DNA of 64,000 bases from Eubacteriales bacterium (GCA_031551135.1 JAVBOA010000015.1:18814-82813); one strand, 5' to 3'; counted from the first letter of the stretch, positions 547 through 27,140 are shown. Numbers and translations are program-made. Notes: generated from the sequence alone by a model not told the origin.

Positions 547-2397
547 TCATTGATTAATCATCTCGGCTAATTCCTCTGAGCTTATATCATAAGCCGCATT
601 TATTCTGCTCAGGCCATACAAAGTATATGGCTTGTTTTTTGCAATTTTGGAGACTTTATTCTCGATTAAAAGCGTAGCGTCAAATCCAAGCGAACGGTAA
701 ATTGAATCCGACAGGATATTCGCTTTTCCGTAAGGATAAGCTAGAATATTCGAATCTATTTCCAATTCTTTGATAAATTCTTGATAGTCTTTTTCGATTT
801 CCGCAAAATATTCGCCTGTGCTTTCGCTGTTTTTTTTCAAAATTCCGTCACGGGATATTTCCGAATCGCCTTCGTTATGCATATCAAAAGTATGAAATCC
901 AAATTTAATTACACCCGAATCAAGCATCTCTTTCGCCTCTTTAAAATCAAAATGCGGTGTTATTTTTTTATCTGAATCGATATATTTATCACGCCCGAAT
1001 GACCAGCCGATTAAATTTATCGTGGCTTTCATATTCATTTCTTTCAAAATAGGATAAGCAAATTCATAATTACTGTAATAACCGTCATCAAAAGTTATAA
1101 TCAGCGGATTTTCGGGTAGATTCTCGATTTCGCCTTTTGCAAATTTTACGGCATCCTCCAAAAAAATTGTATTAAATCCGGCTTTTTTAAAAGCCTGCAA
1201 ATCTGAACGGAATTTTGATTCCGAAATAGTCGCAAGGTTCAGCTCGCCGCCGTCGGGAACAATGTGGTGATACATTAAAATCGGGAGTTTTATTTCCTCA
1301 AGATTTTCACGTGAATTCAAATCCACATATCCGCTTAAATCAAGCTTCGGCGCAAAAATCGAATTTATTTTTTCGCCGGCATTTTCAGAATTTATATATT
1401 CCCCGAAATTTTTGGGAATATAAACGGAATCGTCATTATATACTTTTGCTAGCATCATATCACCGACGAAATTTCTAAAATGCACAGAATCATAAAAAAA
1501 CCGCGGGTCGCCGCTGATATCGTTATAGCCGGAAAAAATCCAATAATCAGAAATCCTAGCCAATTTAATATAATATTCCTTGACTTTTTCCAAATCAAAA
1601 GATTTTAGCTCTAATTCGTAATTCGGTGACGCAATTAATTTAAAGCTAATGTTATTATCGGCGCATATTTTTTTTATTTCGGAAATCGATTCAATGCATT
1701 TATCCCCCAAATCCGTATCAGAAAAAGCCGGATTAGTCAAAAAAGTATTATCGCCGATTTGATTGACGTAGTCGTTTATATTAAGTATATTTTCTTTGTC
1801 GCGCTTGAGTTTATTATAAACACCCAATTCCTCGATAAAAACATTATTCTTTGTAGGAAGTTCCTCAAAAGGCTGAGCCAAAAAAGCGTTTATTTTATTC
1901 GCTGAATATTTTGGATTCATCGTAAGATATTTGTAATAAAAATCTGCCGCCGTGCCGTTTATTTTTCCGTGCATTTCTTCCTTAACGTCTTCCGATTGCT
2001 TATCATATGAAATCAATTCGGTAACGCCGATATTCAAAACAATATTTTCGACATTATAATTTTCGATAAAATATTTCACAGATTTTTCAATTTCTTTAAG
2101 GTCGATTCCGTAAACCATCATATTATAAAAATTTGCGTCCTTATAATATTTGTTTAAAGAGAGCGGCGAAATCGAGGAAGTTTTGGACGAACCGAAAATA
2201 TAGGAATCGTATTTTTGATAATTCTTGTCCAAATACCCGATTTTTGCGGTTTTGGGATTATTCGTCATATTATAGCCGTAAAAATTAAATATATAATCGC
2301 CAAAAACACCGAAAGGGTCAAAAAATATATTTATCGAAAAAATTGCAATAAACCCTATAATAATTCCGATTCCATAATTTAAAATAAATTTTTTCAT
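547..2397 (-). CDS. DltD-like membrane-anchored protein fused to a C-terminal NodB polysaccharide deacetylase domain
   Basis: ORF track 547..2487. Start moved to ATG 2397 (MKKFILNYGIG, N-terminal TM), 11 nt after the MBOAT stop. N-terminal half has a TM plus an IFGSSKTSS block resembling the DltD serine block. C-terminal half has NodB motifs LPILMYHHIV, ITFDDGYYSNYEFAYPILKEMNMKATINLIG, FGFHTFDMH and LAYPYG. Confidence 0.7.
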   Translation of the reverse strand: MKKFILNYGIGIIIGFIAIFSINIFFDPFGVFGDYIFNFYGYNMTNNPKTAKIGYLDKNYQKYDSYIFGSSKTSSISPLSLNKYYKDANFYNMMVYGIDLKEIEKSVKYFIENYNVENIVLNIGVTELISYDKQSEDVKEEMHGKINGTAADFYYKYLTMNPKYSANKINAFLAQPFEELPTKNNVFIEELGVYNKLKRDKENILNINDYVNQIGDNTFLTNPAFSDTDLGDKCIESISEIKKICADNNISFKLIASPNYELELKSFDLEKVKEYYIKLARISDYWIFSGYNDISGDPRFFYDSVHFRNFVGDMMLAKVYNDDSVYIPKNFGEYINSENAGEKINSIFAPKLDLSGYVDLNSRENLEEIKLPILMYHHIVPDGGELNLATISESKFRSDLQAFKKAGFNTIFLEDAVKFAKGEIENLPENPLIITFDDGYYSNYEFAYPILKEMNMKATINLIGWSFGRDKYIDSDKKITPHFDFKEAKEMLDSGVIKFGFHTFDMHNEGDSEISRDGILKKNSESTGEYFAEIEKDYQEFIKELEIDSNILAYPYGKANILSDSIYRSLGFDATLLIENKVSKIAKNKPYTLYGLSRINAAYDISSEELAEMINQ

Positions 2398-2408
2398 TTT
2401 AACACCCG

Positions 2409-3788
2409 CTAAAAATTCTGATATAAAAATGTGGACATTTCTCCAAGGCTGAAGATTGATAAAATTAAGAGTATTCCGGCAAGCCAAATCAAATATATTT
2501 TTTTATCGATTTCTTTTGATAATTGACGTGAATTTTTCGCATAAAAAGAAATAATTATTCCGACCGCCAAAATAAATAAATAATATATATTCGAAGCCAA
2601 ATAGTGCCGTATATCCAAATAATTATTAAAATTAAATAAATATTTCAGAAATAAAATATAATTCCTAAGTCCGTCAATTGAATATAAAGCCGCCGCAAAC
2701 AAAAGTATAATAATCGTTATAAATCTTGATAAAAATTTCGGGAGGATATATTTTTTTGTTGATCGCAGGGCGCAAACCGCTATAACGCACATAGAAAAGC
2801 CATGCAGTAAACCCCATAAAATATAGTTTATGCCCGAACCATGCCATAAACCCGAAATAAAAAAAGTTATCATAGTTGCGGCGCAAAAGCGTACAATTGA
2901 ATTTCCCGGTTTATAAATCACCGAAAAAACATATTCGTTTAGAAATTTAGTCAAAGAAATATGCCAGCGTTTCCAATAATCTTGGATATTTCGGGCTTTA
3001 TAAGGGGAATTGAAATTATCTTTCAAATCAATGTTAAAAAATAAAGAAGTTCCGATACTCATATCCGAATATCCCGAAAAATCAAAATAAAAAGCAAATA
3101 AATTTGTAAACATTCCAAGTAAAAGCGCGATAGAATTCGGCGATTCCAAAACCAAAGCGGATTTTGTGATTTCCAAAAGCGGATTCGCAATTAAAACTTT
3201 TTTTGCCAAGCCAAGCGAAAAAATAAAAAGACCTTTTTTGAAATTATCCGAATTAAATTTATTGAAATCCGAAAACTTAGGAATAATTTCGTTGTGTCTC
3301 GCTATCGGCCCCATTATAAATATCGGGAAATAAATCGAATAAAGCAAAAAATCCACAAATGAATATTCCTTTGCCTTGCCTCTGTAAGAATCGATAATAT
3401 ACGAAACAAAGCGAAACGAATAAAACGATAAACCGATAGGCAGCGCAAGCTTTAAAAAACTGATTTCCGTAGCCAAAAAACGGTTGGAAAGATTAATTAT
3501 AAAATCCGTATATTTTATAAAAAATAAAACGCCGATATTCCCCAAAATTCCAACAAAAAGCAGAATTTTAGATTTATATTTAAAAAGAATACGCCCGACA
3601 GCAAAATTAAATAAAGCCGAAAAGGCGAAAAAAATAATTCCGCTTTTGAAGCTGAATAAAAAATATATCGAAACGCCAATCAGCCAGATTTTATTAATCA
3701 GGCTGATTTTAAAAATATTTAGAATATAAAAAACAATTACCGTAATGGGCAAAAAATAAAAAATATATTCATTTGAGGCAAAAGACAT
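2409..3788 (-). CDS. MBOAT family O-acyltransferase (DltB/AlgI-like)
   Basis: Polytopic membrane protein with MBOAT histidine region YWKRWHISLTKFLNEYVF, followed by SGLWHGSG and LWGLLHG. It lies between the carrier-protein gene and the DltD-like gene. Confidence 0.9.
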   Translation of the reverse strand: MSFASNEYIFYFLPITVIVFYILNIFKISLINKIWLIGVSIYFLFSFKSGIIFFAFSALFNFAVGRILFKYKSKILLFVGILGNIGVLFFIKYTDFIINLSNRFLATEISFLKLALPIGLSFYSFRFVSYIIDSYRGKAKEYSFVDFLLYSIYFPIFIMGPIARHNEIIPKFSDFNKFNSDNFKKGLFIFSLGLAKKVLIANPLLEITKSALVLESPNSIALLLGMFTNLFAFYFDFSGYSDMSIGTSLFFNIDLKDNFNSPYKARNIQDYWKRWHISLTKFLNEYVFSVIYKPGNSIVRFCAATMITFFISGLWHGSGINYILWGLLHGFSMCVIAVCALRSTKKYILPKFLSRFITIIILLFAAALYSIDGLRNYILFLKYLFNFNNYLDIRHYLASNIYYLFILAVGIIISFYAKNSRQLSKEIDKKIYLIWLAGILLILSIFSLGEMSTFLYQNF

Positions 3789-3790
3789 AT

Positions 3791-4024
3791 TTAACCCTTC
3801 ATCTTTATAAACTCGACGATGTCGTTAACGGAATTAAATTCGTTTTCAACTAAATCATCGGGAGATATTTTTATTTTGTATTTTTTTTCTATAAAATTTA
3901 TAATGACTAAAGATTCGAGCGAATCCACATACCCGCCGCCGAATAAATCCGTTTCATTATCCAAATCATTTTCAAAATCCAAATCAAAGCGTTCTTCTAA
4001 AAATTTTCTGATTTCTTCGTGCAT
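3791..4024 (-). CDS. Acyl/aminoacyl carrier protein (DltC-like)
   Basis: 77-aa acidic protein with phosphopantetheine-serine context GGGYVDSLESLVIINFIE (compare DltC GLLDSFGTVELL). Its stop is 2 nt from the MBOAT start. Confidence 0.8.
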   Translation of the reverse strand: MHEEIRKFLEERFDLDFENDLDNETDLFGGGYVDSLESLVIINFIEKKYKIKISPDDLVENEFNSVNDIVEFIKMKG

Positions 4025-4040
4025 AAAATCCTCCTAAAAT

Positions 4041-4511
4041 CTAATCGTTTATCAGTTTGATAAAGGAAATATAATCCTCTGTAAATCCGGCGTTTTTATA
4101 AAAATTAACGGCGCGTGTATTTTTGACCATAGTATGAACCTGCATATATTCAATTTCGTATTCCGAAAAATACTCCCTCGCGCGCTCGATAAGCATTTTC
4201 CCGGTGTTTTTGCTTCGGCATGACTCATCAACAAAAAGCTCGCTGATATTTCCGATATATTTTGAGTTCTCGGCTTTAAATTTTATATTGATTTTGCTGA
4301 TATTTAAATTGATAAAACCAACGACTTTATTTTCCGATTCCGCCACAAATAATTTCAGAAATTTCGAATCCAAGGTAGCTTCCAAAATCTCTGTAAGATT
4401 GCCGGTATTTAATTTTAATACAAAGCCTTTTGAGTTTAAATGCTCATAAAGCTGAACGAACATTTCAAAAACTCTGCTTATGTCCTTTTCTTGCATTTCT
4501 CTGATTATCAA
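4041..4511 (-). CDS. GNAT family N-acetyltransferase
   Basis: 156 aa. CoA-binding type block LFVDESCRSKNTGKMLIERA and C-terminal AVNFYKNAGF. Sits 4 nt downstream of the adenylase stop. Confidence 0.8.
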   Translation of the reverse strand: MIIREMQEKDISRVFEMFVQLYEHLNSKGFVLKLNTGNLTEILEATLDSKFLKLFVAESENKVVGFINLNISKINIKFKAENSKYIGNISELFVDESCRSKNTGKMLIERAREYFSEYEIEYMQVHTMVKNTRAVNFYKNAGFTEDYISFIKLIND

Positions 4512-4515
4512 AATA

Positions 4516-6036
4516 TCACTTCCCGATATAATTTGATTTTAAATAAACACGATCCAATTTGCCGTTTGCATTAAGCGGGATTTTTTCCAAGCGTATGATT
4601 TTGCCGGGAATCATATAGTTCTGCAAAAGACGTTTCATTTTATTCAGAATTTCACGGTCTTTCACATCTCCGCAAATTTCTGCGAAAAGCACAATTTCAG
4701 CGTTTATATCATCATATAAAACACAGGCTTTTTCGATTTCTTCAAGCGATTGGGCGGCCACCTCGATTTCGCCAAGCTCAATCCGATTGCCCTTATGTTT
4801 TATTTGCGAATCTTTCCTGCCGAGATAAATAATTAAATTTTTGTTATTTTCGAAAACTAAATCACCGGTTCGGTAAATTAATTCACGGTATTTTTTATTT
4901 AAAGGATTCTGCATAAAAGCTTTGGAAGTAATTTCGGGCTCGTTGAAATATCCCAGAGCCAAGCCGGTGCCCAAAATGCAAAGCTCGCCGATTTCGCCGA
5001 TTTCGGCTTTTGTATTATCTTCTTTCAAAATCAAGGTCTTTGTGTTTTCGCAGGCTATCCCAATCGGCAACGGTTCGTTATCCGCAAAATCCTCATTTAC
5101 AATATAATAAGTGCAAACATCTGTTATTTCGGTAGGGCCGTATAAATTTGCGTAAAAAATATCCGATTGAGTTTTGCGCCAAATATTAAGCTGTTTATTC
5201 GGCATAACTTCGCCGCAAAACAGAACTTTTTTCAAAGACTTAAATTTTATTTCCGAAAGGATTCCCGAATTTGCAACATTAATAAGGACAGTCGGAACCC
5301 AGAAAATTAAATTAATATTTTTTTGCTCAATGTACTCGGGCAGTTTCACCGGAAAATTAAACAGTACCTCCGGAATAATAATCACTTTGCCGCCGCAGAG
5401 CATTGCGCCGTAAATATCCAAAATCGAATTATCGAAATGAAAAGGCGCTTGATTTCCGAAAATGGTATTTTCGTTCAAGTCAAATTTATTGACAACCCAA
5501 TGCGCATAATCAATAACTCCTTTATGCGGAATAACAACGCCTTTGGGCATGCCCGTCGAGCCGGAAGTATACATAATATAAATCGGGTCGGTATCAATTA
5601 TACTCATTAACGAATTTTCAATCAAATTTTCGTCAACAGGGCAACCGAGAGCCGTATCAAAAATAATTATTTCTGCATCAGATAAATCCGTATCTTTTTT
5701 TAGTCTTTCAGAGCCTGCCGAATCGGTGATAATTGCAGACGGCTTTAAATGAGAAATAATTTTCGAAAGTCTAGCCGACGGCATATTTATATCAAACGGA
5801 ACGTAGGTCGAGCCGCTGTATAAAATCCCCATAAACGAAATCAATGTGTTGCAGGATTTTGGTAAAAAAACGCCGATAAAGCCGTTTTTGTTTTTATTTA
5901 AAATATAAGAAGCAATTTTTTTTGCGTAATTTCGGTATTCAGAATAAGTATAGCTGTTTTGATTATCCTCAATAGCGGCTTTTTCTGCAAAATTTGTTGC
6001 TGCCTTGTCCAAAATTTTAATAGCCGATGAAAACAT
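4516..6036 (-). CDS. DltA-like amino acid adenylation enzyme (carrier-protein ligase)
   Basis: 506 aa with ANL motifs YIMYTSGSTGMPKGV, NQAPFHFDNSILDIYG, FCGEVMP, LYGPTEITD, YRTGDL and GRKDSQIKHKGNRIELGEIE. Length and motif spacing match DltA. Confidence 0.9.
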   Translation of the reverse strand: MFSSAIKILDKAATNFAEKAAIEDNQNSYTYSEYRNYAKKIASYILNKNKNGFIGVFLPKSCNTLISFMGILYSGSTYVPFDINMPSARLSKIISHLKPSAIITDSAGSERLKKDTDLSDAEIIIFDTALGCPVDENLIENSLMSIIDTDPIYIMYTSGSTGMPKGVVIPHKGVIDYAHWVVNKFDLNENTIFGNQAPFHFDNSILDIYGAMLCGGKVIIIPEVLFNFPVKLPEYIEQKNINLIFWVPTVLINVANSGILSEIKFKSLKKVLFCGEVMPNKQLNIWRKTQSDIFYANLYGPTEITDVCTYYIVNEDFADNEPLPIGIACENTKTLILKEDNTKAEIGEIGELCILGTGLALGYFNEPEITSKAFMQNPLNKKYRELIYRTGDLVFENNKNLIIYLGRKDSQIKHKGNRIELGEIEVAAQSLEEIEKACVLYDDINAEIVLFAEICGDVKDREILNKMKRLLQNYMIPGKIIRLEKIPLNANGKLDRVYLKSNYIGK

Positions 6037-6117: not shown

Positions 6118-6146
6118 TTAAAAAAAACGGCGCATGCGCGCCGTTT
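6118..6146 (-). terminator. Intrinsic terminator after the tandem-NodB gene
   Basis: CGGCGC-atgc-GCGCCG stem flanked by an A7 tract (U-tract on the minus strand). Confidence 0.8.
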
Positions 6147-6255
6147 CAAATACAAAGCAGTTACAGGCCGCCAAAGGCGGCAATAAAGTTCTTTTGCTTC
6201 TTTTCTTTCAAGAAAAGAAGGCGGGTTTGGGTGGCAAGCCCAAATTTTTAAAGCT

Positions 6256-7764
6256 CTATTTAAATATATTCTTGAAATCATCAAAAGAAGTATTGCCGTA
6301 AACAGTTATACGGTTTAGCTTGTAAGGGTTCGTATTTCGGTTTACATAGCCTTTTTTTGTTGTGTACGCAAGCTTTATAGAAGATTCTTTAAGCATTTCA
6401 ATCACGCTTGGGCTGTAAACACCCATCGGATAGGCCAAACTGAATTTGTTGTCCGTAAACTCCGTGCTTTTATTTATATCTTCCAAAAGCGATTCTTTGT
6501 CCAAATAAACTGCGGGTGTTTTATTTGTGCCCGTGACTATTTCGTGCAGGTCGTACGTATGGCTGGCAAAAGTCACTAAATCTCTAACATCCGCAAAAGA
6601 TTCCCTTGCGATATAAACGGGCTTGTTCGGGTCAAACGGAGCTTGCTTTTCCTCGGTTCGTTTTCCGACAATAAAAAAAGTTGCGTGAAAATTATATTTT
6701 TTGAGTACGGGATATGCGTTTACAATACTGCTGAAATATCCGTCATCAAAATGCAGTAAGAAAGATTTTTTCGGCAGTTCCAAGCCGTCGTATAGATATC
6801 CGTATAATTGCTTTTCGGTAATTGCGGTATAGCCATTTGTATAAAGGAATTGCATTTGTTTTTCGAAATTTTCCAAACTGGTGACAGACGGATTTCCTTT
6901 ATAATTCTTATTTTCGGCGTCCGAAAGAATATGGTGATACAGCAAAATCGGTATTTTATCGGCATTCTCGTTTTCTTCTGTCAAATTACCGTCAACGATT
7001 TTTATAAAGCTTTCAATATCTGTAATATTATAAATAATATTTCGGTTTAATTCATATGGATTGGAATATTTATTTACATATCCGCTTTTTACAGTAAACG
7101 CCATTTTAACGCCCAAGTCCTTCAAAATTGGCATATTGGATTTTTTAAACTGACCGCGCGGATAAGCTAAAGCGCGTTTATCGGTTATTCTAAAACTCTT
7201 TAAGAGGTCTTGCTTAATTGTATCCTCATCAAATAACATTAATCCGGTATGGCCGTCATATTCTAAGCGGTGCATGTCGTTGGTATGGCTGCCGAACTCG
7301 AAAACATCGCGAACAGCGTCCAAGCTTTCTTCGGCTATCCAAGTAAATCTGGACGGGTCAAATTCGACTTGCTTTTTATGCACGACAGTAGTGATTAGAA
7401 ATATTTGCGCTTTGAAATTATATTTTTTTAGTATAGGATAAGCACGGGCTATATTAGAATAATAACCGTCGTCAAATTGAATCATGATTGACTTTTCGGG
7501 CAATTCTATACCGTAATATAAAAAGGCCTCAAGCTCGTCCAAAGTAACTGTATGGAAATTATTTTCATATAAATATTTCATTTGCGCTTCAAAGTCTTCA
7601 AGAGTGACTACACAAGAGTTGTAAGATTTGTTTTCTGCTTCTGACAAAATATGATGATAAAGAAGTATCGGTATTTGATTGAGTTTTTGACTTGCTGAAA
7701 CCTTACATTGAAAAATTGGCAGAAATAAAAAAGTGATTATAAACAACAAAAAAATCTTTCGCAT
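6256..7764 (-). CDS. Secreted protein with two tandem NodB polysaccharide deacetylase domains
   Basis: ORF track 6256..7815. Start moved to ATG 7764 (MRKIFLLFIITFLFLPIF signal peptide), preceded by GGGGAGG. Two modules each carry IPILLYHHILS, (Q/H)FDDGY(Y/F)S, AYP(I/V)LKKYNF, SHT..(M/L)H, LAYP.G and LNR. Confidence 0.85.
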   Translation of the reverse strand: MRKIFLLFIITFLFLPIFQCKVSASQKLNQIPILLYHHILSEAENKSYNSCVVTLEDFEAQMKYLYENNFHTVTLDELEAFLYYGIELPEKSIMIQFDDGYYSNIARAYPILKKYNFKAQIFLITTVVHKKQVEFDPSRFTWIAEESLDAVRDVFEFGSHTNDMHRLEYDGHTGLMLFDEDTIKQDLLKSFRITDKRALAYPRGQFKKSNMPILKDLGVKMAFTVKSGYVNKYSNPYELNRNIIYNITDIESFIKIVDGNLTEENENADKIPILLYHHILSDAENKNYKGNPSVTSLENFEKQMQFLYTNGYTAITEKQLYGYLYDGLELPKKSFLLHFDDGYFSSIVNAYPVLKKYNFHATFFIVGKRTEEKQAPFDPNKPVYIARESFADVRDLVTFASHTYDLHEIVTGTNKTPAVYLDKESLLEDINKSTEFTDNKFSLAYPMGVYSPSVIEMLKESSIKLAYTTKKGYVNRNTNPYKLNRITVYGNTSFDDFKNIFK

Positions 7765-8429
7765 AATGCCTCCCCACATTATTGTAATTTCAAAATCCCG
7801 CCGAATTTGCCGCAAAATTAAAGCGAAACAGTAAGCGAATTTAAGAAATCCATTTAAAGGTTTTAATGCCCTTTATTCTTATATATATTGAAGATTATCA
7901 AGCAAAACTTGAAAAAATTCTGCCATCATTATACATGAAAGACTTAAAATTTACAAGCTAAAAGTAAAAAATGCAATGATAGAAAGGATTATAAATTCTG
8001 CTGTCTAAAAAATAATTTTAATCTGAACTAAAAAAATACTATCGACAGATATTTGCATTTTATATTTACTGCGTATGATATCTTTTTATCAGTAACACTG
8101 ATTGTTATGTTTGCGGCTTCTGTGACAGCGCAATGGTAAAAAGTTTTTGCTATAACATGTATGTTACATTGTGTTTAAGAATTTCCCCCAATTCTTACAT
8201 ATTTTCAAAAGGCAAAATAAAGCTCCTCATATTTATTTTTGCAAAAGAGACAAATTGTGTTTGAATTTTTTCAAACACGGTCAAGCGAAAAAATTGCCGA
8301 GGCGGTTTTTTCGCTGAAACCTTTTGAAAGCAGCAGATTTTGGGATACGAAAATCGGACAAGCATCTATATTTTATAAAACTTATAATGTATAGGCTGAA
8401 TATACGAATGAGAAAACAGGAGGTATAAT

Positions 8430-9695
8430 ATGAACTTTCCCACTAATATAAAACAGATTGGGACTATTGATGATGGAATGAAAATTTATGTCGAGGACTA
8501 TGTATATTCTTATTTGAAACAATACGCAAAAAGCAATGATTATAAAGAAAGTCTTGCGGTTTTGATGGGGAAATACATGGAGATTGACAAAACCGAGGTG
8601 GTTTTTATATCGGGTGCGATACAGGGCAAACATCTGGCGGAATCAAACGGCTTGATAAGCTTTACCGACAAATCTTGGGAATATGTGCTTGAGCAAAAGG
8701 AATTGTTTTTTAATGATTTGGAGGTAGTCGGCTGGATGCAGTCGCAGCCGTCTTATGGTACATATTTAAACGCAAGCTGTGCGAATTACCATCTCAATAA
8801 TTTTCGAAAGCCGTATCAAGTTTTATTTATTTACGACCCTGTTGAAAAGGTTAATTCATTTTTCGCATATTCAAAAGACCTGACCGATATTATCGAGAAG
8901 AAAGGCTATTTTATTTACTATGATAAAAACAATGAAATGCATGAATACATGGTTGCGAACAAAATTGCGGGCGCTGAAAAAGAAAAATCCAAAGACCCTA
9001 CGCTGAAATACATTACGGAAAAAAGGGAAAAGCGTCAATCCGCAGTTATCGCTAAAGATTTAAGCGATTGGATTCCCGATGAAAAGGAAAATCCGAAAAG
9101 CTTAATTACGAAAGATGAAAATGAATTTCAGGCACAAAAGAAGGCTCTTAACCTGCTGGTAAGCTTATGCGTTGTTTTATTTGTAACATCTTTTATAATG
9201 GGGATGGGCCTGATGAATAACCAAGACAGAATTGCTACATTGGAAGAAAATCTCTCAACGCTGACAACTACGTATAAAGATTTGGTACAATCTTCGGAGG
9301 TTTTTGCCCAAGCAAACAAAAATACGGTAAAGGAAGGTGATAACACAAATCTGATTGTTGAAAACGGAAATGATTATGTAGATAATCCTGATAAATCAAA
9401 TTTAACAGAAGAAAACATTATTAACGGAGAGACGAATGACGAAAATCTGCCGACGGACGCAGGCACTACATATACAGAAGAAAGTGCGGAGCCAAGTGCC
9501 GAAACGGATTCGGAGGACGCAGATAAAATTCCGGAGTTTTATGTTGTTCAAAGCGGAGATACGCTTTTGAAAATTTCCGAAAAAATCTACGGCACTAGGA
9601 AAATGGCAGGAAAAATTATGGAATTTAACAAGATGAAAGACGCAGATAAAATAGTTATTGGTAAAAAGCTTTTATTACCGCCGAAAAGCGAATAA
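8430..9695 (+). CDS. MPN/JAB-like (apparently catalytically inactive) domain, TM segment, C-terminal LysM domain
   Basis: RBS AGGAGG lies before the ATG. N-terminal MPN-like fold has GWMQSQP in place of the JAMM GW.HSHP motif. TM is LLVSLCVVLFVTSFIMGMGL. Acidic linker follows, then LysM YVVQSGDTLLKISEKIYG...IVIGKKLLLP. Confidence 0.7.
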   Translation: MNFPTNIKQIGTIDDGMKIYVEDYVYSYLKQYAKSNDYKESLAVLMGKYMEIDKTEVVFISGAIQGKHLAESNGLISFTDKSWEYVLEQKELFFNDLEVVGWMQSQPSYGTYLNASCANYHLNNFRKPYQVLFIYDPVEKVNSFFAYSKDLTDIIEKKGYFIYYDKNNEMHEYMVANKIAGAEKEKSKDPTLKYITEKREKRQSAVIAKDLSDWIPDEKENPKSLITKDENEFQAQKKALNLLVSLCVVLFVTSFIMGMGLMNNQDRIATLEENLSTLTTTYKDLVQSSEVFAQANKNTVKEGDNTNLIVENGNDYVDNPDKSNLTEENIINGETNDENLPTDAGTTYTEESAEPSAETDSEDADKIPEFYVVQSGDTLLKISEKIYGTRKMAGKIMEFNKMKDADKIVIGKKLLLPPKSE

Positions 9696-11049: not shown

Positions 11050-12390
11050 TTAATCTTCTTCAGAAGTTCCCAAAACAATTATTATATCAAAATCGGTTTG
11101 GTTTTTTACATATTTAACACGGGGCTTATTAAAAAATTCTTTTAAATCATAGCCAAGACCTTCTTTATTCACATAAATAAAAGTATTTTCGTCTTTCGGC
11201 ATATCCGAATCGCCGATTTCTGTAACATTAAATCCGGCACCAATCAGCTCTTCTTGCTTCTTGCCCGCCAATCCATTAACATAGCCGCCGTTCAAAACTT
11301 TAATCTTTTTGCCTTTGCTGGATATTTTCTGCATATCTTCGTCGTAAAAAACTTCAGAGATGACTTTTTCACAGGCATCTAAATCAAATTCAATATCATT
11401 TGTTTCAACACCGTCAACATATCTCGATTTTACGGGAATCGTAGCGGTTTGGATATTTTCGGGACTTATGTCCTTAACGTATTTTAAATATTTCGGAACT
11501 TCATTGATATTAAAATTAGTTGTGACATATTTGCTGATATTGTTGATAACAGCCTGCGCATTGTTGACAATATTATCTTTTGCCAAAAGCTGCATGATAA
11601 ATTCTCTGACAAAATCCTGCTGAACTTTTACTCTTTCTAAATCGCCCATAATATAAATAGGGCTTTCGTCTTCATAACCGGCATTCGGTTTTCGGTAGCG
11701 CAAAAGACCTTCGGCATCTTTACCGTTCAAAACCTGCTCGCCGGGGTAAAGGTCAATATACAAATCCTGAACGAAATCCTCATATAACATACGCTGCGGA
11801 ACATTAAATTTCACACCGCCCATATCATCGATAAGCGAACGGAATCCTTCTAAATTAAGCTTTGCATAATAATCGATATTTATATCAAAGGTATTTTCGA
11901 TTTCATTAACCAGCATTTCTACACCTAGGCTTTGCCCGGCGTAATGATGCAGTTCGGCAAGCTTTAAATATCCGCTTTGGGGTAGAAATCTATCGTTTTC
12001 AAGCAAAATCTTTTCTTGTTCCTCAGTCAACTCTATATAAATATCTCTTGGGATGCTGATTAGTTTTATAATTTTCTCCTTTGTCAAAAATGTTCCGATC
12101 ATCATAAAATCAGTTCTTGTACCATCGTGGTCTGTACACATAACAATAAAATTCACTCTGGATGAAACAGGTTTAAAAAAATCTTCAATAACATTTGGCT
12201 CTTTCAAGCCGGTATGGATATCATCATTTTTAGTATAATCGATTTCATCTTTTAATATATTTTTTGCAAATATGTATATACCGGCAAATAATAGTGACAT
12301 TATAACAATTAATGAAAAAAACAAAATTAATAATACACGTCTTCTTGATTTTTTATGCTTAATATTGTTCTTTTGTGACTGTGTTGCCAA
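11050..12390 (-). CDS. LytR-CpsA-Psr (LCP) family cell-wall polymer transferase with C-terminal LytR_C domain
   Basis: N-terminal TM, LCP core (FMMIGTF, ISIPRDIYI, KLNLEGFRSLIDDMGGV) and C-terminal IKVLNGGYVNGLAGKKQEELIGAGFNV. Confidence 0.9.
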   Translation of the reverse strand: MATQSQKNNIKHKKSRRRVLLILFFSLIVIMSLLFAGIYIFAKNILKDEIDYTKNDDIHTGLKEPNVIEDFFKPVSSRVNFIVMCTDHDGTRTDFMMIGTFLTKEKIIKLISIPRDIYIELTEEQEKILLENDRFLPQSGYLKLAELHHYAGQSLGVEMLVNEIENTFDINIDYYAKLNLEGFRSLIDDMGGVKFNVPQRMLYEDFVQDLYIDLYPGEQVLNGKDAEGLLRYRKPNAGYEDESPIYIMGDLERVKVQQDFVREFIMQLLAKDNIVNNAQAVINNISKYVTTNFNINEVPKYLKYVKDISPENIQTATIPVKSRYVDGVETNDIEFDLDACEKVISEVFYDEDMQKISSKGKKIKVLNGGYVNGLAGKKQEELIGAGFNVTEIGDSDMPKDENTFIYVNKEGLGYDLKEFFNKPRVKYVKNQTDFDIIIVLGTSEED

Positions 12391-12472
12391 ATTATCTCCT
12401 CCAAAAAATTAATCTAAAGCTAATTCTAACATAACTAAGCATATATTTAAATACAAAATTATTTCAGCCGAC

Positions 12473-12551
12473 TAATACTATTTTCATTTTGATAAGTAGA
12501 AAAAAATTTTTCACAGCATAGCGTTCCGCGGGATTAAAATGGAAATCTGTA
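12473..12551. repeat. Family 1 repeat, internally deleted copy A
   Basis: The left arm is identical to copy C through TTTTTCACAGC. It then runs GCGTTCCGCGG and joins directly to a degenerate right end AATGGAAATCTGTA. Confidence 0.7.
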
Positions 12552-12661
12552 GACATAAAAGAGGATTTGTGAGATAATTAATAGCACACTCAATCTTTTC
12601 ACGATGCATAAATTTCCCTGATTTTCCCTATATAGTTTGATTAAAAATCCTTGGAGGAATT

Positions 12662-13735
12662 ATGTTTTTTCTCACAGTTTTAGTTTTACTAAACTCTTTT
12701 TTTACATCAAACGCCGTTCAGCCATTTAAGATTGATGAGCCGGTGACCGGAAAGTTTGAAAGCAAACAAATATCGAAGGAATATAAAATCAGTATAAATA
12801 AAACCGCTAACGTAGGCTTTTCATTATTCTGCCATACAGATGGCAGCCCTTCAGATATTTCGTGGAAAATATCTTTTTTTAGCGAAGGCGGATATTCTCC
12901 TGTATTTTTAAGTACAGGCACAGATTTTCAAAAAAATAAAAAACAATCAAAGGATTCGGCGGAATGGTATAAAGAAAATTTAACTTTGCCTACGGGAAAT
13001 TATACCGTAACAGTCTCTGTACCGGAAAAATTATTTAATGATGAAATATCCTATATTGATTATTTATTTGAAATTTATCCTTTTGAAAAAGCCTCAAGCT
13101 TGTCTTATGCGGACAAGCCGAGCGCTTGGGCTCAAAAGGAAGTAGAATCGGCTTTAAAATCAAATCTGGTTCCGGCGGAACTGAGTTCAAAATTTACGGC
13201 AAATATTACCCGGGCAGAATTTGCGCGGCTGGTTTCGTATTATGTGGTAAAAAATATTTCCGGCACGCCGGACGCAACGATTCACGCTATGGATAATTGG
13301 CTGGAAGACAGCAATTTTTACAGGCTTCATGGTATCGAAAAAAAATCTTTTGTATTTGCGGACACAAATGATAAATATATTAATTTTGCGTATTCTACAG
13401 GTGTTGTTGCGGGCGTTGGAGAAGGAAATTTTAATCCAAACGGAGTAATTACTCGTGAACAAGCCGCCGTTATGCTGACAAATGCTTCTTTTACTTCTTC
13501 CAATAAAATAAACATAGGCGCAAAAATAATTTTTAATGACAAATCAGATTTTTCGGATTGGGCAAAAGATGCAATTGATTTTATAACTTCGGTGAGGACT
13601 TATGAAAAATCTGTTGCTGTTATGAGCGGAGTTGAAAACGGGAATTTTGCGCCAAAAGAAAAATATACTCGCGAACAAGCGATTGTTACTGTTTACAGAT
13701 TATTACAATCGACGTTTAGTAATGTAGCGGTTTGA
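12662..13735 (+). CDS. Secreted SLH-domain cell-wall-anchored protein
   Basis: RBS GGAGG and a short signal peptide. The C-terminal half has three SLH-like repeats (ITRAEFARLV, FADTNDKYINFAYSTGVVAGVGEGNFNPNGVITREQAAVML, FSDWAKDAIDF..MSGVENGNFAPKEKYTREQAIV). Confidence 0.75.
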   Translation: MFFLTVLVLLNSFFTSNAVQPFKIDEPVTGKFESKQISKEYKISINKTANVGFSLFCHTDGSPSDISWKISFFSEGGYSPVFLSTGTDFQKNKKQSKDSAEWYKENLTLPTGNYTVTVSVPEKLFNDEISYIDYLFEIYPFEKASSLSYADKPSAWAQKEVESALKSNLVPAELSSKFTANITRAEFARLVSYYVVKNISGTPDATIHAMDNWLEDSNFYRLHGIEKKSFVFADTNDKYINFAYSTGVVAGVGEGNFNPNGVITREQAAVMLTNASFTSSNKINIGAKIIFNDKSDFSDWAKDAIDFITSVRTYEKSVAVMSGVENGNFAPKEKYTREQAIVTVYRLLQSTFSNVAV

Positions 13736-13796
13736 TTTTTTTCCGACTAAAACATTTTGTTTTGAAGATATATAGAATCAAGAAAAATCAAACCGC
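13727..13796. repeat. Hairpin repeat family 2 (GCGGTTTGATTTTT ... AAAAATCAAACCGC), copy 1
   Basis: GCGGTTTGATTTTTTTCCGACTAAAACATTTTGTTTTGAAGATATATAGAATCAAGAAAAATCAAACCGC. Its left arm contains the TGA stop of the SLH gene. It is about 80% identical to the reverse complement of 44659-44729. Confidence 0.85.
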
Positions 13797-13820
13797 AAGT
13801 AATCAATATATAGTTATTAA

Positions 13821-13852
13821 TAATGTAGCGGTTTGATAATGTAGCGGTTTGA
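13821..13852 (+). repeat. Tandem duplication of the 16-mer TAATGTAGCGGTTTGA (also the last 16 nt of the SLH gene, 13720-13735)
   Basis: Exact 16-mers at 13720-13735, 13821-13836 and 13837-13852. Confidence 0.9.
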
Positions 13853-13860
13853 TTAAAAAA

Positions 13861-13894
13861 ACTTAGCGGAAATTTTTTTCGCTAAGTTTTTTTG
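13861..13894. terminator. Bidirectional terminator between the SLH gene and pdaA
   Basis: ACTTAGCG-gaaattttttt-CGCTAAGT flanked by A7 and T7. Confidence 0.8.
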
Positions 13895-13901
13895 AAAAAT
13901 T

Positions 13902-14642
13902 TTATAAATCATCGAGATTCTTAAATTCATAGCCCATCTCTTTATATTTATTGATCAATTCCTCTAGAATTTCAACATTTGTTTTTGACATGTTATGCAA
14001 AAGGATTATCGCTCCCGGGTGGATGCGCGGAATTAATTTATCAAATGCTTCTTTTTTGGACGGCTGATTGTAAATATCAAAATCACGGTAGGCCAAAGAC
14101 CAGAAAATAGTTTTATATCCCAATTCTTGAGCTGTTTTTAAATTCTCCTCGTTGTATTTGCCTTCGGGCGGCCGATAGAATTTTTTCATTTTTTTGCCGG
14201 TAATTTCGCTGTAAATATCCTCAACAGCTTTTAATTCGGTATTAAAGGCTTCTTTAGAATATATTTTTGACATATCCGGATGAGTCATTGTGTGATTGCC
14301 GACAATATGCCCTTCCTTAACAATTCGCTTTACGATTTCAGGATTTTTTTTCAAATACGAGCCGACTAAAAAAAATGTAGCCTTGACTTTATTCTTTTTT
14401 AGAATATCCAGAATTTTTTCGGTATATCCGTTTTCATATCCCGAATCAAAGGTTAAATATATTATCTTTTTGCCTTCGTCGCCGACAAAATAAGAATCAA
14501 AATTTTTCAAATATTCTACGCTTTCGTTGGCTGTTGGGCGCGCCTCGTTTTTTGGAAAACTCAAACCCCAATCTTTTGCAAGCAAAGTATTTTGGATAAT
14601 TAAATTTAAAATAATCAAAATTAAAATTATTCTTTTTTTCAT
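13902..14642 (-). CDS. pdaA: Delta-lactam-biosynthetic de-N-acetylase (spore cortex), PdaA-like
   Basis: Signal peptide, then WGLSF...YLTFDSGYENGYTEKILDILKKNKVKATFFLVG...EGHIVGNHTMTHPDMS...YRPPEG...HPGAIILLH, collinear with B. subtilis PdaA. Confidence 0.85.
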   Translation of the reverse strand: MKKRIILILIILNLIIQNTLLAKDWGLSFPKNEARPTANESVEYLKNFDSYFVGDEGKKIIYLTFDSGYENGYTEKILDILKKNKVKATFFLVGSYLKKNPEIVKRIVKEGHIVGNHTMTHPDMSKIYSKEAFNTELKAVEDIYSEITGKKMKKFYRPPEGKYNEENLKTAQELGYKTIFWSLAYRDFDIYNQPSKKEAFDKLIPRIHPGAIILLHNMSKTNVEILEELINKYKEMGYEFKNLDDL

Positions 14643-25120: not shown

Positions 25121-26980
25121 TTATCTTCTATAATTATTTTTTGCTCTTCGAGTTATCGAATTCAAATTAGTATTACTGTTTGATTGTAAACTATTATATC
25201 TATATTTTCTTCGTGCTTTCTTTTTATTATTATAAACAACAATATATGAAAGCCCAAACAATATAAACAAAAGCATCAGAAGCGTCGCTGTTGAGGAATT
25301 CGAAGATTTATTTTTTATAGGTAAATCTGATTCGCTTAAAACAGAATCTCCGAAATTAGTTTGCTGAATAGCACTGCTGTTGTTTTCTGCCAATGTTACC
25401 GGCGGAATGGAGGTATTTGGTGTATCGGAAGAAAACAATTGCGCTTCTTCTGTATTCAGTTCAGGAGCATTTTTAGAAGCAACAATATCGTTTTCAACAG
25501 TATTTGCACCGGCTCCGTTTTGTTCAGTTGGCTTTTGAGTGCTTTCAGTCGTTCCCGGCGTAACCTCTGAAGAAGCTTTAGGCTTTTCATTGACAGAGCT
25601 TTTTCTGCTGACAGTTATCTTAGGCATAGGAACATTTTCCATATTATCCTCGACAAAAGGCGGAATTGTAACATTTTCCGGTATTTCGTAGCTGATGGTA
25701 TTGCTGACAGATTCGGACACACTGAACGAAGTGGTTTCCTCTACAGCTTTGTTATCCAAGTTTACTACAAAAATCGTGGATACATTTGTGCGCCTGTCAA
25801 TATTCAATCCGGGTACAGAATTTGAATATGCCTTTGTTTCTACCACTAAATCGCGCGTGATATTGTCTTTATTTTTATTAAAAATATAATTATATGCAAC
25901 CGAATATTTATCGTAAGTTTCCTTATCCATTTTTGCATATTCTATTTTTGATTTATCGTTGGTCTTAATATAAAATGTAAACATCGGCAATTCTTCGCCG
26001 TTTTTATTCTTTTTAAAATTAATGGGAACATATTTTTCCACAAATTTATAAGACATATTCGGTGTCAAACCGAAATCAAAATTATATTTGTAGAAATAAT
26101 TTATCAGCTCTCCAAAATTATCGCGCAGGCCGCCGCCGTATTTCTCTATTTCGACAGGGAAACAACCGAGGATTTCCTCGTTTCCGATATCCAAAGAGTT
26201 CGGATATATTATTTTAACCCATTCTTTTGTATCCTCTTGTAAAACAAAAAGTTCAAAATATGCAGTATTGTTTGTATCAAAAAACTCTTCGCCTATCGGT
26301 AAAAGTCCGTCGCTGTTATAACTGCTCGCTCTGTTGTGAAGAATTAATTTATTTGTCGTAGATACATTAAAATTGTAATAGTAAGTTCTTTGGTCTTTAT
26401 AGTCTTTCCTAACGCTGCCGTCGGGTTCATAAGATTGCGCTGCCGGGTCATACATTATGCCGGTATTAAGTTCAAAATTCTGCTTAAAATTACTCGTGTT
26501 AATAGCTTCAAAAACGCCTTTTGTGTCGATTTTAAACCTGATTTTACCCGGGTTATAATAGCCGTCGTCCGCAGATATTACTTGATATATTTCATAATAT
26601 CCGGGCGTTGCTTCATAAATATCCGGAGAAATACCTTTATAAGCCGTAGAACCTTTATCAGAAGTAAAGGCTTCATGGACTTCTTTTAGTATCGTCGGTT
26701 CAAAATCATAGGTGCTTAAAGGCTTCGTAAATTCGCTGTCCTCATATTTCACTAAAGTGTACCGAGCACCTTTTACGCCGACTTCGTAATTTGACAAAGA
26801 CGCAGCAATCCGTATATGGTGAGATCTACCAATATCAAATTTCACATTGTCCGCGTAGACAATTTCGTTAGAATAAAAGAAAAGCATAACAAATACTATA
26901 ATCAATGTGTTTAGCTTTAGCCTATACATCAAAAACAGCAAAAACAACAAGGCGAGAAAGCCTTGCAGAAATATTAGCAT
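25121..26980 (-). CDS. Cell-surface protein with Cna-B/prealbumin-like domain, Ser/Pro/Thr/Glu-rich stalk and C-terminal TM anchor
   Basis: Start set to ATG 26980, 7 nt after GGGGGAGGGGG. Contains KGARYTLVKYED...ATPGYYEIYQVISADDGYY. The C-terminal TM plus basic tail replaces an LPXTG motif. Confidence 0.7.
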   Translation of the reverse strand: MLIFLQGFLALLFLLFLMYRLKLNTLIIVFVMLFFYSNEIVYADNVKFDIGRSHHIRIAASLSNYEVGVKGARYTLVKYEDSEFTKPLSTYDFEPTILKEVHEAFTSDKGSTAYKGISPDIYEATPGYYEIYQVISADDGYYNPGKIRFKIDTKGVFEAINTSNFKQNFELNTGIMYDPAAQSYEPDGSVRKDYKDQRTYYYNFNVSTTNKLILHNRASSYNSDGLLPIGEEFFDTNNTAYFELFVLQEDTKEWVKIIYPNSLDIGNEEILGCFPVEIEKYGGGLRDNFGELINYFYKYNFDFGLTPNMSYKFVEKYVPINFKKNKNGEELPMFTFYIKTNDKSKIEYAKMDKETYDKYSVAYNYIFNKNKDNITRDLVVETKAYSNSVPGLNIDRRTNVSTIFVVNLDNKAVEETTSFSVSESVSNTISYEIPENVTIPPFVEDNMENVPMPKITVSRKSSVNEKPKASSEVTPGTTESTQKPTEQNGAGANTVENDIVASKNAPELNTEEAQLFSSDTPNTSIPPVTLAENNSSAIQQTNFGDSVLSESDLPIKNKSSNSSTATLLMLLFILFGLSYIVVYNNKKKARRKYRYNSLQSNSNTNLNSITRRAKNNYRR

Positions 26981-27140
26981 TTTCAAGCCCCCTCCCCCGA
27001 TAAAAGCTTATGCTAGTTTTTTTCAGACTGCTATCATCTTATATCTGAGTATAAATATTAAACACATCACAGGGATAACAAAAAATGTACAAAGAAAATT
27101 GAAAATCATGTGTTTTTTAGATAATTTCTTTATAATTATT

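Follow-up and report, generated by a model that had tools for sequence, protein, structure and literature searches.

A Dlt-related operon in a Eubacteriales bacterium combining a carrier protein, an MBOAT with an FxYxxF tail and a DltD-fold protein fused to a predicted deacetylase

Two classes of MBOAT-SGNH system are recognised: the Dlt class, which has a carrier protein and DltX, and the acetyl-CoA class, which has no carrier protein and a fused shuttle. Resistance to lysozyme and antimicrobial peptides depends on surface charge and on the acylation of glycans, as do phage adsorption and immune recognition. In the Dlt pathway, the MBOAT protein DltB moves D-alanine from the carrier protein DltC to the tyrosine of the C-terminal FxYxxF motif of the microprotein DltX, which then passes it to the serine of DltD (PMC12148441). 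PatA and other MBOATs work without DltX or a carrier, take an acyl-CoA donor and have the FxYxxF motif fused at their own C-terminus (PMC12148441). Here we describe a five-gene operon on the minus strand, at positions 547-6036, of a 64-kb stretch of DNA from a Eubacteriales bacterium (GCA_031551135.1 JAVBOA010000015.1:18814-82813); the whole stretch is called the window, and coordinates are positions in it. The DNA has a G+C content of 34%, and homologues place its source among the Clostridia. The operon joins the two classes, having both a carrier protein and a fused shuttle, and two of its features are absent from both, namely a GNAT assigned to the donor stage and the fusion of a deacetylase to the terminal transferase. 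The reading we favour, and consider probable, is that its products form a carrier-protein-dependent MBOAT-SGNH acyl relay across the membrane with a fused deacetylase, acting on a wall polymer that contains N-acetylglucosamine (GlcNAc).

The MBOAT and the fusion protein

The listing of open reading frames (ORFs) showed five co-directional minus-strand ORFs from 547 to 6036, packed and placed as in the original prediction, with matching domain content; every motif quoted in that prediction was found in the translations. In order of transcription they encode a stand-alone amino-acid adenylation enzyme that resembles DltA and the adenylation (A) domains of non-ribosomal peptide synthetases (NRPSs) (4516-6036, 506 amino acids), a GNAT N-acetyltransferase (4041-4511, 156 amino acids, from a TTG; 4041-4496, 151 amino acids, from an ATG at 4496), a carrier protein (3791-4024, 77 amino acids), an MBOAT acyltransferase (2409-3788, 459 amino acids) and a fusion of an SGNH-like part with a NodB domain (547-2397, 616 amino acids). 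Reading of the junctions gave intergenic gaps, from the adenylase onward, of 4 or 19, 16, 2 and 11 nucleotides (nt). The first gap is 4 nt with the TTG start of the GNAT gene and 19 nt with the ATG at 4496, which is the start in the NCBI record and probably the real one. The carrier gene has a ribosome-binding site, TAGGAGG, 7 nt 5' of its start codon. All 21 aligned homologues of the fusion protein begin near the ATG at 2397 (MKKF...), and the last gene most likely starts there and not at the TTG at 2487; with this start the fusion protein has 616 residues and its gene does not overlap the MBOAT gene. A terminator-like hairpin on the minus strand at 6124-6147 (a stem of 10 bp, 6 of them G-C, followed by a T-run) marks the 5' boundary, separating the adenylase gene from an upstream gene for a protein with two NodB domains, and a bidirectional terminator-like hairpin at 466-496, 3' of the last gene, is common to the operon and a convergent gene at 29-460. 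The two hairpins delimit a predicted five-gene transcription unit.

The MBOAT matched the Pfam MBOAT family (E=9e-23) and has the histidine of the WHISL motif. Its closest solved relative, and best match in the Protein Data Bank (PDB), is DltB (E=2e-18); against the DltB equivalog TIGR04091 it scored 137, below the cutoff of 375. The protein ends ...STFLYQNF, followed by the stop codon, so that its last six codons (2412-2429, minus strand) spell F-L-Y-Q-N-F, an FxYxxF motif whose tyrosine would be the acyl carrier. No DltX-like ORF was found in or beside the operon. The presence of the carrier gene together with the fused FxYxxF tail points to Dlt-like carrier dependence combined with the shuttle of the acyl-CoA systems.

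One genome per species was scanned, which yielded 80 loci (designated by L numbers); 33 of them had full-length matches to the fusion protein, and 29 of these had upstream sequence. In 26 of the 29 the gene immediately 5' of the fusion gene encodes an MBOAT, and 24 of these 26 MBOATs end in F-[LI]-Y-x-x-[FY]; the two exceptions have the tails YVYESI and YVYENV.

The N-terminal part of the fusion protein (1303-2397, minus strand) has a single transmembrane helix, at about residues 2-26, and after it an SGNH-like domain of predicted DltD fold. Searched at a threshold as loose as E<=10, the first 370 residues matched no Pfam family, DltD (PF04914) included, and comparison of profiles with PDB sequences gave no DltD match. 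An AlphaFold2 model was built from the alignment (predicted local distance difference test, pLDDT, 88.6; predicted template modelling score, pTM, 0.86). A Foldseek search of the PDB with this model matched its N-terminal domain to the DltD structures 6PFX, 6O93, 3BMA and 7DXM (E=2e-5 to 1e-3, probability 0.97-1.0, 10-14% identity), which were the best matches outside the NodB family. The term DltD-like, used for this protein in the original prediction, is upheld at the level of the modelled fold but not at that of sequence. In an alignment of 22 homologues G69, S71, D303 and H306 are invariant; S71 would be the SGNH block I serine and D303-x-x-H306 block V, together a putative catalytic triad.

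The C-terminal part (547-1302, minus strand) is a NodB (CE4) domain of the PgaB/IcaB/PplD type with the motifs MYHH, TFDDGY, HTFDMH and YPYG. PF01522 was matched at residues 427-573 (E=1.3e-15, 57.9 bits, cutoff 23.1), profile searches matched PgaB (E=3.5e-34), IcaB, BpsB and PplD, and Foldseek gave the same four proteins at E of about 1e-14. The catalytic set Y376, H377, D437, D438, H502 and H507 is invariant, and the YH, TFDDG and H-x4-H motifs are in register with those of IcaB, BpsB and PgaB. The catalytic and metal-binding motifs are intact, and the domain is a predicted de-N-acetylase. The scores against the equivalogs for poly-N-acetylglucosamine (PNAG) deacetylases were below cutoff (PgaB 99.6, cutoff 321.9; IcaB 54.9, cutoff 248), and no PgaC/IcaA-type PNAG synthase was found in the window.

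Among 5.8 billion proteins searched, the matches listed included at least 120 full-length homologues of the fusion protein (about 610 residues, 35-71% identity), each with 'polysaccharide deacetylase' as its sole annotation; exact-sequence look-ups of the window protein itself gave no match. The sources are Clostridia, among them Oscillospiraceae and Lachnospiraceae-like members, together with Paenibacillus and Cohnella, and gut metagenomes contributed many of the sequences. A HMMER scan with the N-terminal domain gave 1,035 matches at E<=1e-3 among 1.84 billion cluster representatives (50% identity), a mixture of fusions of about 600 residues and stand-alone proteins of about 350 residues; the family is a wide one, with about 1,000 such clusters containing the domain. 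In one locus (L037, 7703-11023) the two halves are unfused and flank the MBOAT gene, the products being a NodB protein of 279 residues, an MBOAT of 472 residues ending FLYFQF and an SGNH-like protein of 345 residues.

Related loci and their donor modules

At least 24 of the 26 loci with an MBOAT-fusion pair also encode a carrier protein and a loader, the latter being an adenylase with a GNAT, an adenylase alone or an FkbH-domain enzyme. Two arrangements predominate. In the one called type A the gene order is adenylase, a protein of about 260 residues with a C-terminal GNAT domain, carrier, MBOAT and fusion. In type B it is MBOAT, fusion, carrier and an FkbH-domain protein of about 350 residues. 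FkbH enzymes load glyceryl units onto carrier proteins, and the type-B protein scored 264-269 bits against TIGR01686 (cutoff 147), which suggests that type-B systems may relay a glyceryl-type unit and not an amino acid. The MBOAT-fusion pair is modular and is served by exchangeable donor modules. Type-B loci include L002 (2406-6963), L003, L005, L009, L013, L032 and L042. The GNAT protein of type A has an extra N-terminal domain without a Pfam match, and one type-A operon (L007) contains a gene for a GtrII-like membrane glycosyltransferase.

The five-gene order of the window recurs in L088 and in L082 together with L081. In L088 all five genes are present in the same order, and their products are 56/28/39/44/43% identical to those of the window. 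L082, which is cut by a contig end, has adenylase, GNAT, carrier and MBOAT genes (proteins at 66/64/63/73% identity), and L081 has the C-terminus of an MBOAT (68%, FLYQNF), a reductase gene and the fusion gene (71%). The inserted gene in this closest relative (L081, 323-1465) encodes an aldo-keto reductase/4Fe-4S protein. The GNAT and the NodB fusion are both kept in L082/L081 (63-73%) and in L088, as the original prediction had asked to see.

A second set of relatives comprises operons from Clostridia with a short MBOAT. L083 and L090 have a single adenylase, a GNAT, a carrier protein, a tailless MBOAT of about 380 residues, a DltD-like protein of about 290 residues without a NodB domain and a microprotein; the latter has 35-47 residues, ends FIYE[AG]F and is DltX-like. 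The same set with two adenylases and no GNAT is found in L084/85 (8001-13500 in L084) and L091 (7001-12916), and with three adenylases and no GNAT in L089 (8001-14923) and L093 (7001-14094). The tandem adenylases of these operons have different pocket codes, with one carrier protein in each operon.

On these comparisons the window operon reads as a mosaic, which L088 and L082/L081 share. The donor module is that of the DltX-containing clostridial lineage, and the nearest lineage for the MBOAT and the fusion protein is that of type B and Paenibacillus; for the MBOAT, E was about 1e-90 against that lineage, 1e-35 against type A and 1e-20 against the short MBOATs. The NodB fusion tracks the MBOAT type and occurs with three different donor modules. 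Because it follows the lineage of the MBOAT and not the donor, the deacetylase most likely relates to the acceptor polymer.

The same loci bear on the possibility that the operon holds two unrelated modules, an MBOAT-fusion pair that uses acetyl-CoA, in the manner of PatA/PatB-type systems, to O-acetylate a wall polymer and also N-deacetylates it, and an adenylase-GNAT-carrier set that makes an unrelated small product. The fused FxYxxF tail is typical of acetyl-CoA-using MBOATs, the pair in the Paenibacillus locus L001 has no carrier protein, and L092 retains an adenylase and a GNAT without an MBOAT (7001-9388, where these genes are followed by a C-terminal fragment of a DltD-like gene and an intact DltX-like ORF, with BlaI/BlaR-type neighbours). 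However, the DltD-like fragment and the DltX-like ORF mark L092 as a decayed operon. In the window, moreover, the stop codon of the carrier gene and the start of the MBOAT gene are 2 nt apart, and the carrier gene adjoins that of the MBOAT or the fusion in at least 24 of the 26 loci, with three types of loader, which is hard to explain without coupling. We regard two unrelated modules as unlikely.

The adenylase, the carrier protein and the GNAT

The adenylase matched Pfam AMP-binding (E=8.6e-63) and passed the model for amino-acid adenylation domains (NCBIfam TIGR01733, 330.6, cutoff 317.4), and it failed both DltA equivalogs (TIGR01734, 285 bits, cutoff 559.85; NF003417, 300, cutoff 476). 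Its relatives in the PDB, with similar scores, are NRPS A-domains (LgrA, PheA, PltF) and DltA. The Bacillus subtilis and B. cereus DltA sequences, confirmed against PDB 3E7W and 3DHV, were aligned with it as references. At the ten Stachelhaus positions the window enzyme has DNLFLCLDVK and DltA has DLMTMCTVAK, so that 7 of 10 positions differ and only Asp235, Cys301 and Lys517 are common to both, with the register at positions 330/331 ambiguous between two alignments. The comparison with the DltA pocket that had been proposed earlier gave a pocket that is not that of DltA. Asp235 predicts a substrate whose alpha-amino group is free. The pattern D-N-[FLYV]-F-x-[CA]-[LM]-D..K is present in every one of the 120 closest homologues (51-66% identity), and the family appears to have a conserved and distinct specificity, not demonstrably for D-alanine. 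Type-A adenylases are 34-42% identical to the window enzyme and have the pocket D-x-K-x-x-G-L-V-D-K (loci L004-L027), which we take to resemble the NRPS code for glutamate.

The carrier protein matched PP-binding (E=3.7e-7) and has its putative phosphopantetheine serine in the motif VDSLES. Its scores against two DltC models (28.6, cutoff 68; 17.7, cutoff 52.35) were no better than those against generic acyl carrier protein models. With the MBOAT and adenylase results this agrees with the prediction of a non-canonical Dlt system, all Dlt equivalogs having failed.

These results can be set against the possibility that the operon is a diverged canonical Dlt system which D-alanylates teichoic acids, the GNAT and NodB parts being incidental. 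Three of the proteins have DltA, DltB and DltC among their closest characterised relatives, and the N-terminal domain of the last protein resembles DltD more than any other solved fold. The adenylase also retains the cysteine of LFCGE, aligned with Cys269 of DltA, which we take to be the cysteine that selects D-alanine. Nevertheless, every Dlt equivalog model scored well below its cutoff, and the divergent pocket code is kept in all 120 close homologues. There is no DltX gene, the shuttle motif being fused to the MBOAT, and the conservation of the GNAT and the NodB fusion down to 28-43% identity argues against incidental additions. In addition, the MBOAT-fusion pair is served elsewhere by FkbH-type loaders, which are unable to supply D-alanine. 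A canonical Dlt function is in our judgement very improbable.

The GNAT matched Pfam Acetyltransf_1 (E=5e-14, 53 bits, cutoff 20.7), and no specific NCBIfam subfamily model reached its cutoff. Its nearest relatives in the PDB are generic small-amine acetyltransferases, with weak matches (E>=2.5e-4). A metagenome scan with the window GNAT returned only two unrelated GNATs, and the alignment of the GNATs was too divergent to be used as a search query. The GNAT gene adjoins the carrier gene in two separate adenylase lineages, and it is predicted to belong to the donor stage of the pathway. Among type-A loci 14 of 17 have a GNAT, and L006, L023 and L030 have no room for one. In the family of the window adenylase, sampled at 10 loci, on which the pattern rests, each of the 6 operons with a single adenylase has a GNAT, and the 4 with more than one adenylase have none. 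This mutual exclusion of GNAT and extra adenylase is compatible with a role in N-capping or as a second loader.

Alternatively, the GNAT could be a regulator that switches the pathway off by acetylating the adenylase at its catalytic lysine, in the way that Pat and AcuA act on acyl-CoA synthetases. The adenylase ends P-LNAN-GK, which fits PX4GK, presumably the motif recognised by Pat/AcuA acetyltransferases, and the GNAT resembles small general amine acetyltransferases without a specific family assignment. The PX4GK motif, however, is general to the enzyme superfamily. None of the 4 operons with two or three adenylases has a GNAT, yet their need of regulation would be no smaller, and the GNAT gene adjoins that of the carrier protein in differing gene orders. 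We give a regulatory GNAT a small chance.

The window operon, L082/L081 and L088 each encode both an acetyltransferase and a deacetylase, which could also mean that the two form a protection and deprotection cycle, in which the GNAT N-acetylates the carrier-bound amino acid and, once this has been transferred, the NodB domain removes the acetyl group outside the cell and exposes a cationic amine on the polymer. Asp235 is retained, so acetylation would have to follow loading. On the other hand, the type-B loci and L006, L023 and L030 have the NodB fusion but no GNAT, L083 and L090 combine a GNAT with a NodB-less DltD-like partner, and the NodB domain is closest to the sugar de-N-acetylases PgaB, IcaB and PplD. 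The GNAT without NodB in L083 and L090 and the NodB fusion with three donors make a strict pairing of GNAT and NodB unlikely, and such a cycle has little to recommend it.

Proposed relay and comparison with known systems

In the favoured reading, a carrier-dependent relay, the adenylase would activate an amino acid with a free alpha-amino group and load it onto the carrier protein as a thioester, as family membership suggests. The GNAT would act at the cytoplasmic donor stage, where it may acetylate the carrier-bound amino acid as an N-cap, the likeliest of its possible roles and a tentative assignment. By analogy with DltB/DltX and PatA, the MBOAT would move the acyl group from the carrier to the tyrosine of its own FLYQNF tail. 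The tail would pass it to Ser71 of the extracytoplasmic SGNH domain, and from there it would reach a cell-wall or surface glycan. The fused PgaB/IcaB-type domain would de-N-acetylate GlcNAc-type residues of the same polymer; the fusion of the deacetylase to the transferase implies that the two modifications are physically coupled. An exchangeable-donor modification system in gut commensals is a target for experiment and offers a natural test of the acyl-tyrosine shuttle model.

Several observations weigh against this reading. The Paenibacillus pair of L001 has neither carrier nor loader nearby and can probably draw on acyl-CoA as its donor, an option that might also be open to the window pair. 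In L020, L028 and L029 the fusion gene has no adjacent MBOAT gene. The GNATs of different lineages are 15-28% identical and possibly not orthologous, few loci underlie the relation of GNAT to extra adenylases, and to our knowledge the code DNLFLCLDVK matches no described specificity code. No recurrent polysaccharide synthase was found near the 33 loci and none in the window; this hints at a housekeeping polymer as the acceptor, for example peptidoglycan, a linkage unit or a secondary wall polymer. The reading is drawn from sequence and a structural model.

A more specific version of the relay would be an acyl swap, in which the NodB domain strips the N-acetyl group from wall GlcNAc and the SGNH domain re-acylates the freed amine or a neighbouring hydroxyl, the group being an amino acid, possibly N-acetylated, in the window and glyceryl in the FkbH-served relatives. 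We hold this version to be doubtful; if it were true, it would amount to a modular post-export diversification of cell-surface sugars in gut Clostridia.

In the neighbourhood of the operon, the upstream gene at 6256-7815 (minus strand) encodes a secreted protein of 519 residues with two tandem IcaB/PgaB-like NodB domains (IcaB equivalog 178, cutoff 248), which may act on the same polymer. It was considered as a sixth operon member and rejected, the 6124-6147 hairpin lying between it and the adenylase gene and L082 and L088 having no such gene next to the operon. A nearby cluster of cell-wall genes (11050-14642) encodes an LCP (LytR-CpsA-Psr) ligase (11050-12390), an SLH-domain protein (12662-13735) and a further, single-domain NodB deacetylase (13902-14642), and there is also a gene for a LysM protein (8430-9695). 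The rest of the window is ordinary chromosome and gave no further clue; among its genes are those for hexuronate catabolism (33-42 kb), for a GGDEF-EAL protein and for methionyl-tRNA synthetase. An ORF of 621 residues at 25121-26986 (minus strand) had no Pfam match at E<=1e-5. Among the related loci, a gene for an XrtG-associated GT2 glycosyltransferase (TIGR03111, 522 bits) lies just upstream of the type-B operon of L032, the only such locus.

Among known systems, PgaB, IcaB and BpsB act on PNAG, and PplD acts on the linkage unit of a streptococcal rhamnopolysaccharide. The C-terminal domain of the fusion protein shares their fold, motif order and catalytic residues. It differs from PgaB and IcaB in scoring below their equivalog cutoffs, in its fusion to an acyltransferase domain and in having no adjacent PNAG synthase in the window. 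By their sequences, the window proteins can be placed in CE4 and GNAT at superfamily level only. The AlmEFG system of Vibrio uses a DltA-like adenylase and a carrier protein to supply glycine, a substrate other than D-alanine, to lipid A, and AlmG is an LpxL-type acyltransferase of the cytoplasmic face and not an MBOAT-SGNH relay. The window adenylase matched AlmE (PDB 4OXI) far less well than DltA (E=3.9e-38 against 3e-61).

The Dlt-like operons of Clostridia resemble the window operon in their adenylases, which are 51-56% identical and have the same pocket code, and in having the GNAT gene beside that of the carrier protein, and differ in the short tailless MBOAT with its FIYE[AG]F microprotein and in the DltD-like protein without NodB. 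No characterisation of them was found in the literature. In the literature searched, of which the searchable coverage is incomplete, no DltD-like::NodB fusion, GNAT-containing Dlt-like operon or FkbH-MBOAT system was described. With the systems PatA/PatB, AlgI/AlgJ/AlgX and WssH/WssI the window operon shares an MBOAT of about 460 residues, the FxYxxF tail and an extracytoplasmic SGNH partner. These systems are described without a carrier protein (PMC12148441), whereas the window has carrier and adenylase genes immediately upstream, and its SGNH partner belongs to another, unnamed family and is fused to a deacetylase.

The closest comparison is with Dlt itself. No canonical dlt operon was found within the window, and the operon described here would fall outside the canonical system on its DltA, DltX and DltD family assignments. 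The distinct envelope-modification system of the original prediction holds in so far as the operon is Dlt-like yet non-canonical, with failed equivalogs, a different pocket and conserved GNAT and NodB parts. As far as the searched literature goes, it looks like an undescribed relative of Dlt. As in Dlt, the MBOAT would be supplied by a free-standing adenylase through a small carrier protein, and the final transfer outside the cell would fall to an enzyme of DltD fold anchored in the membrane; the window operon differs in having no DltX, a fused FxYxxF motif, an embedded GNAT, a DltD-fold::NodB protein and another adenylase pocket.

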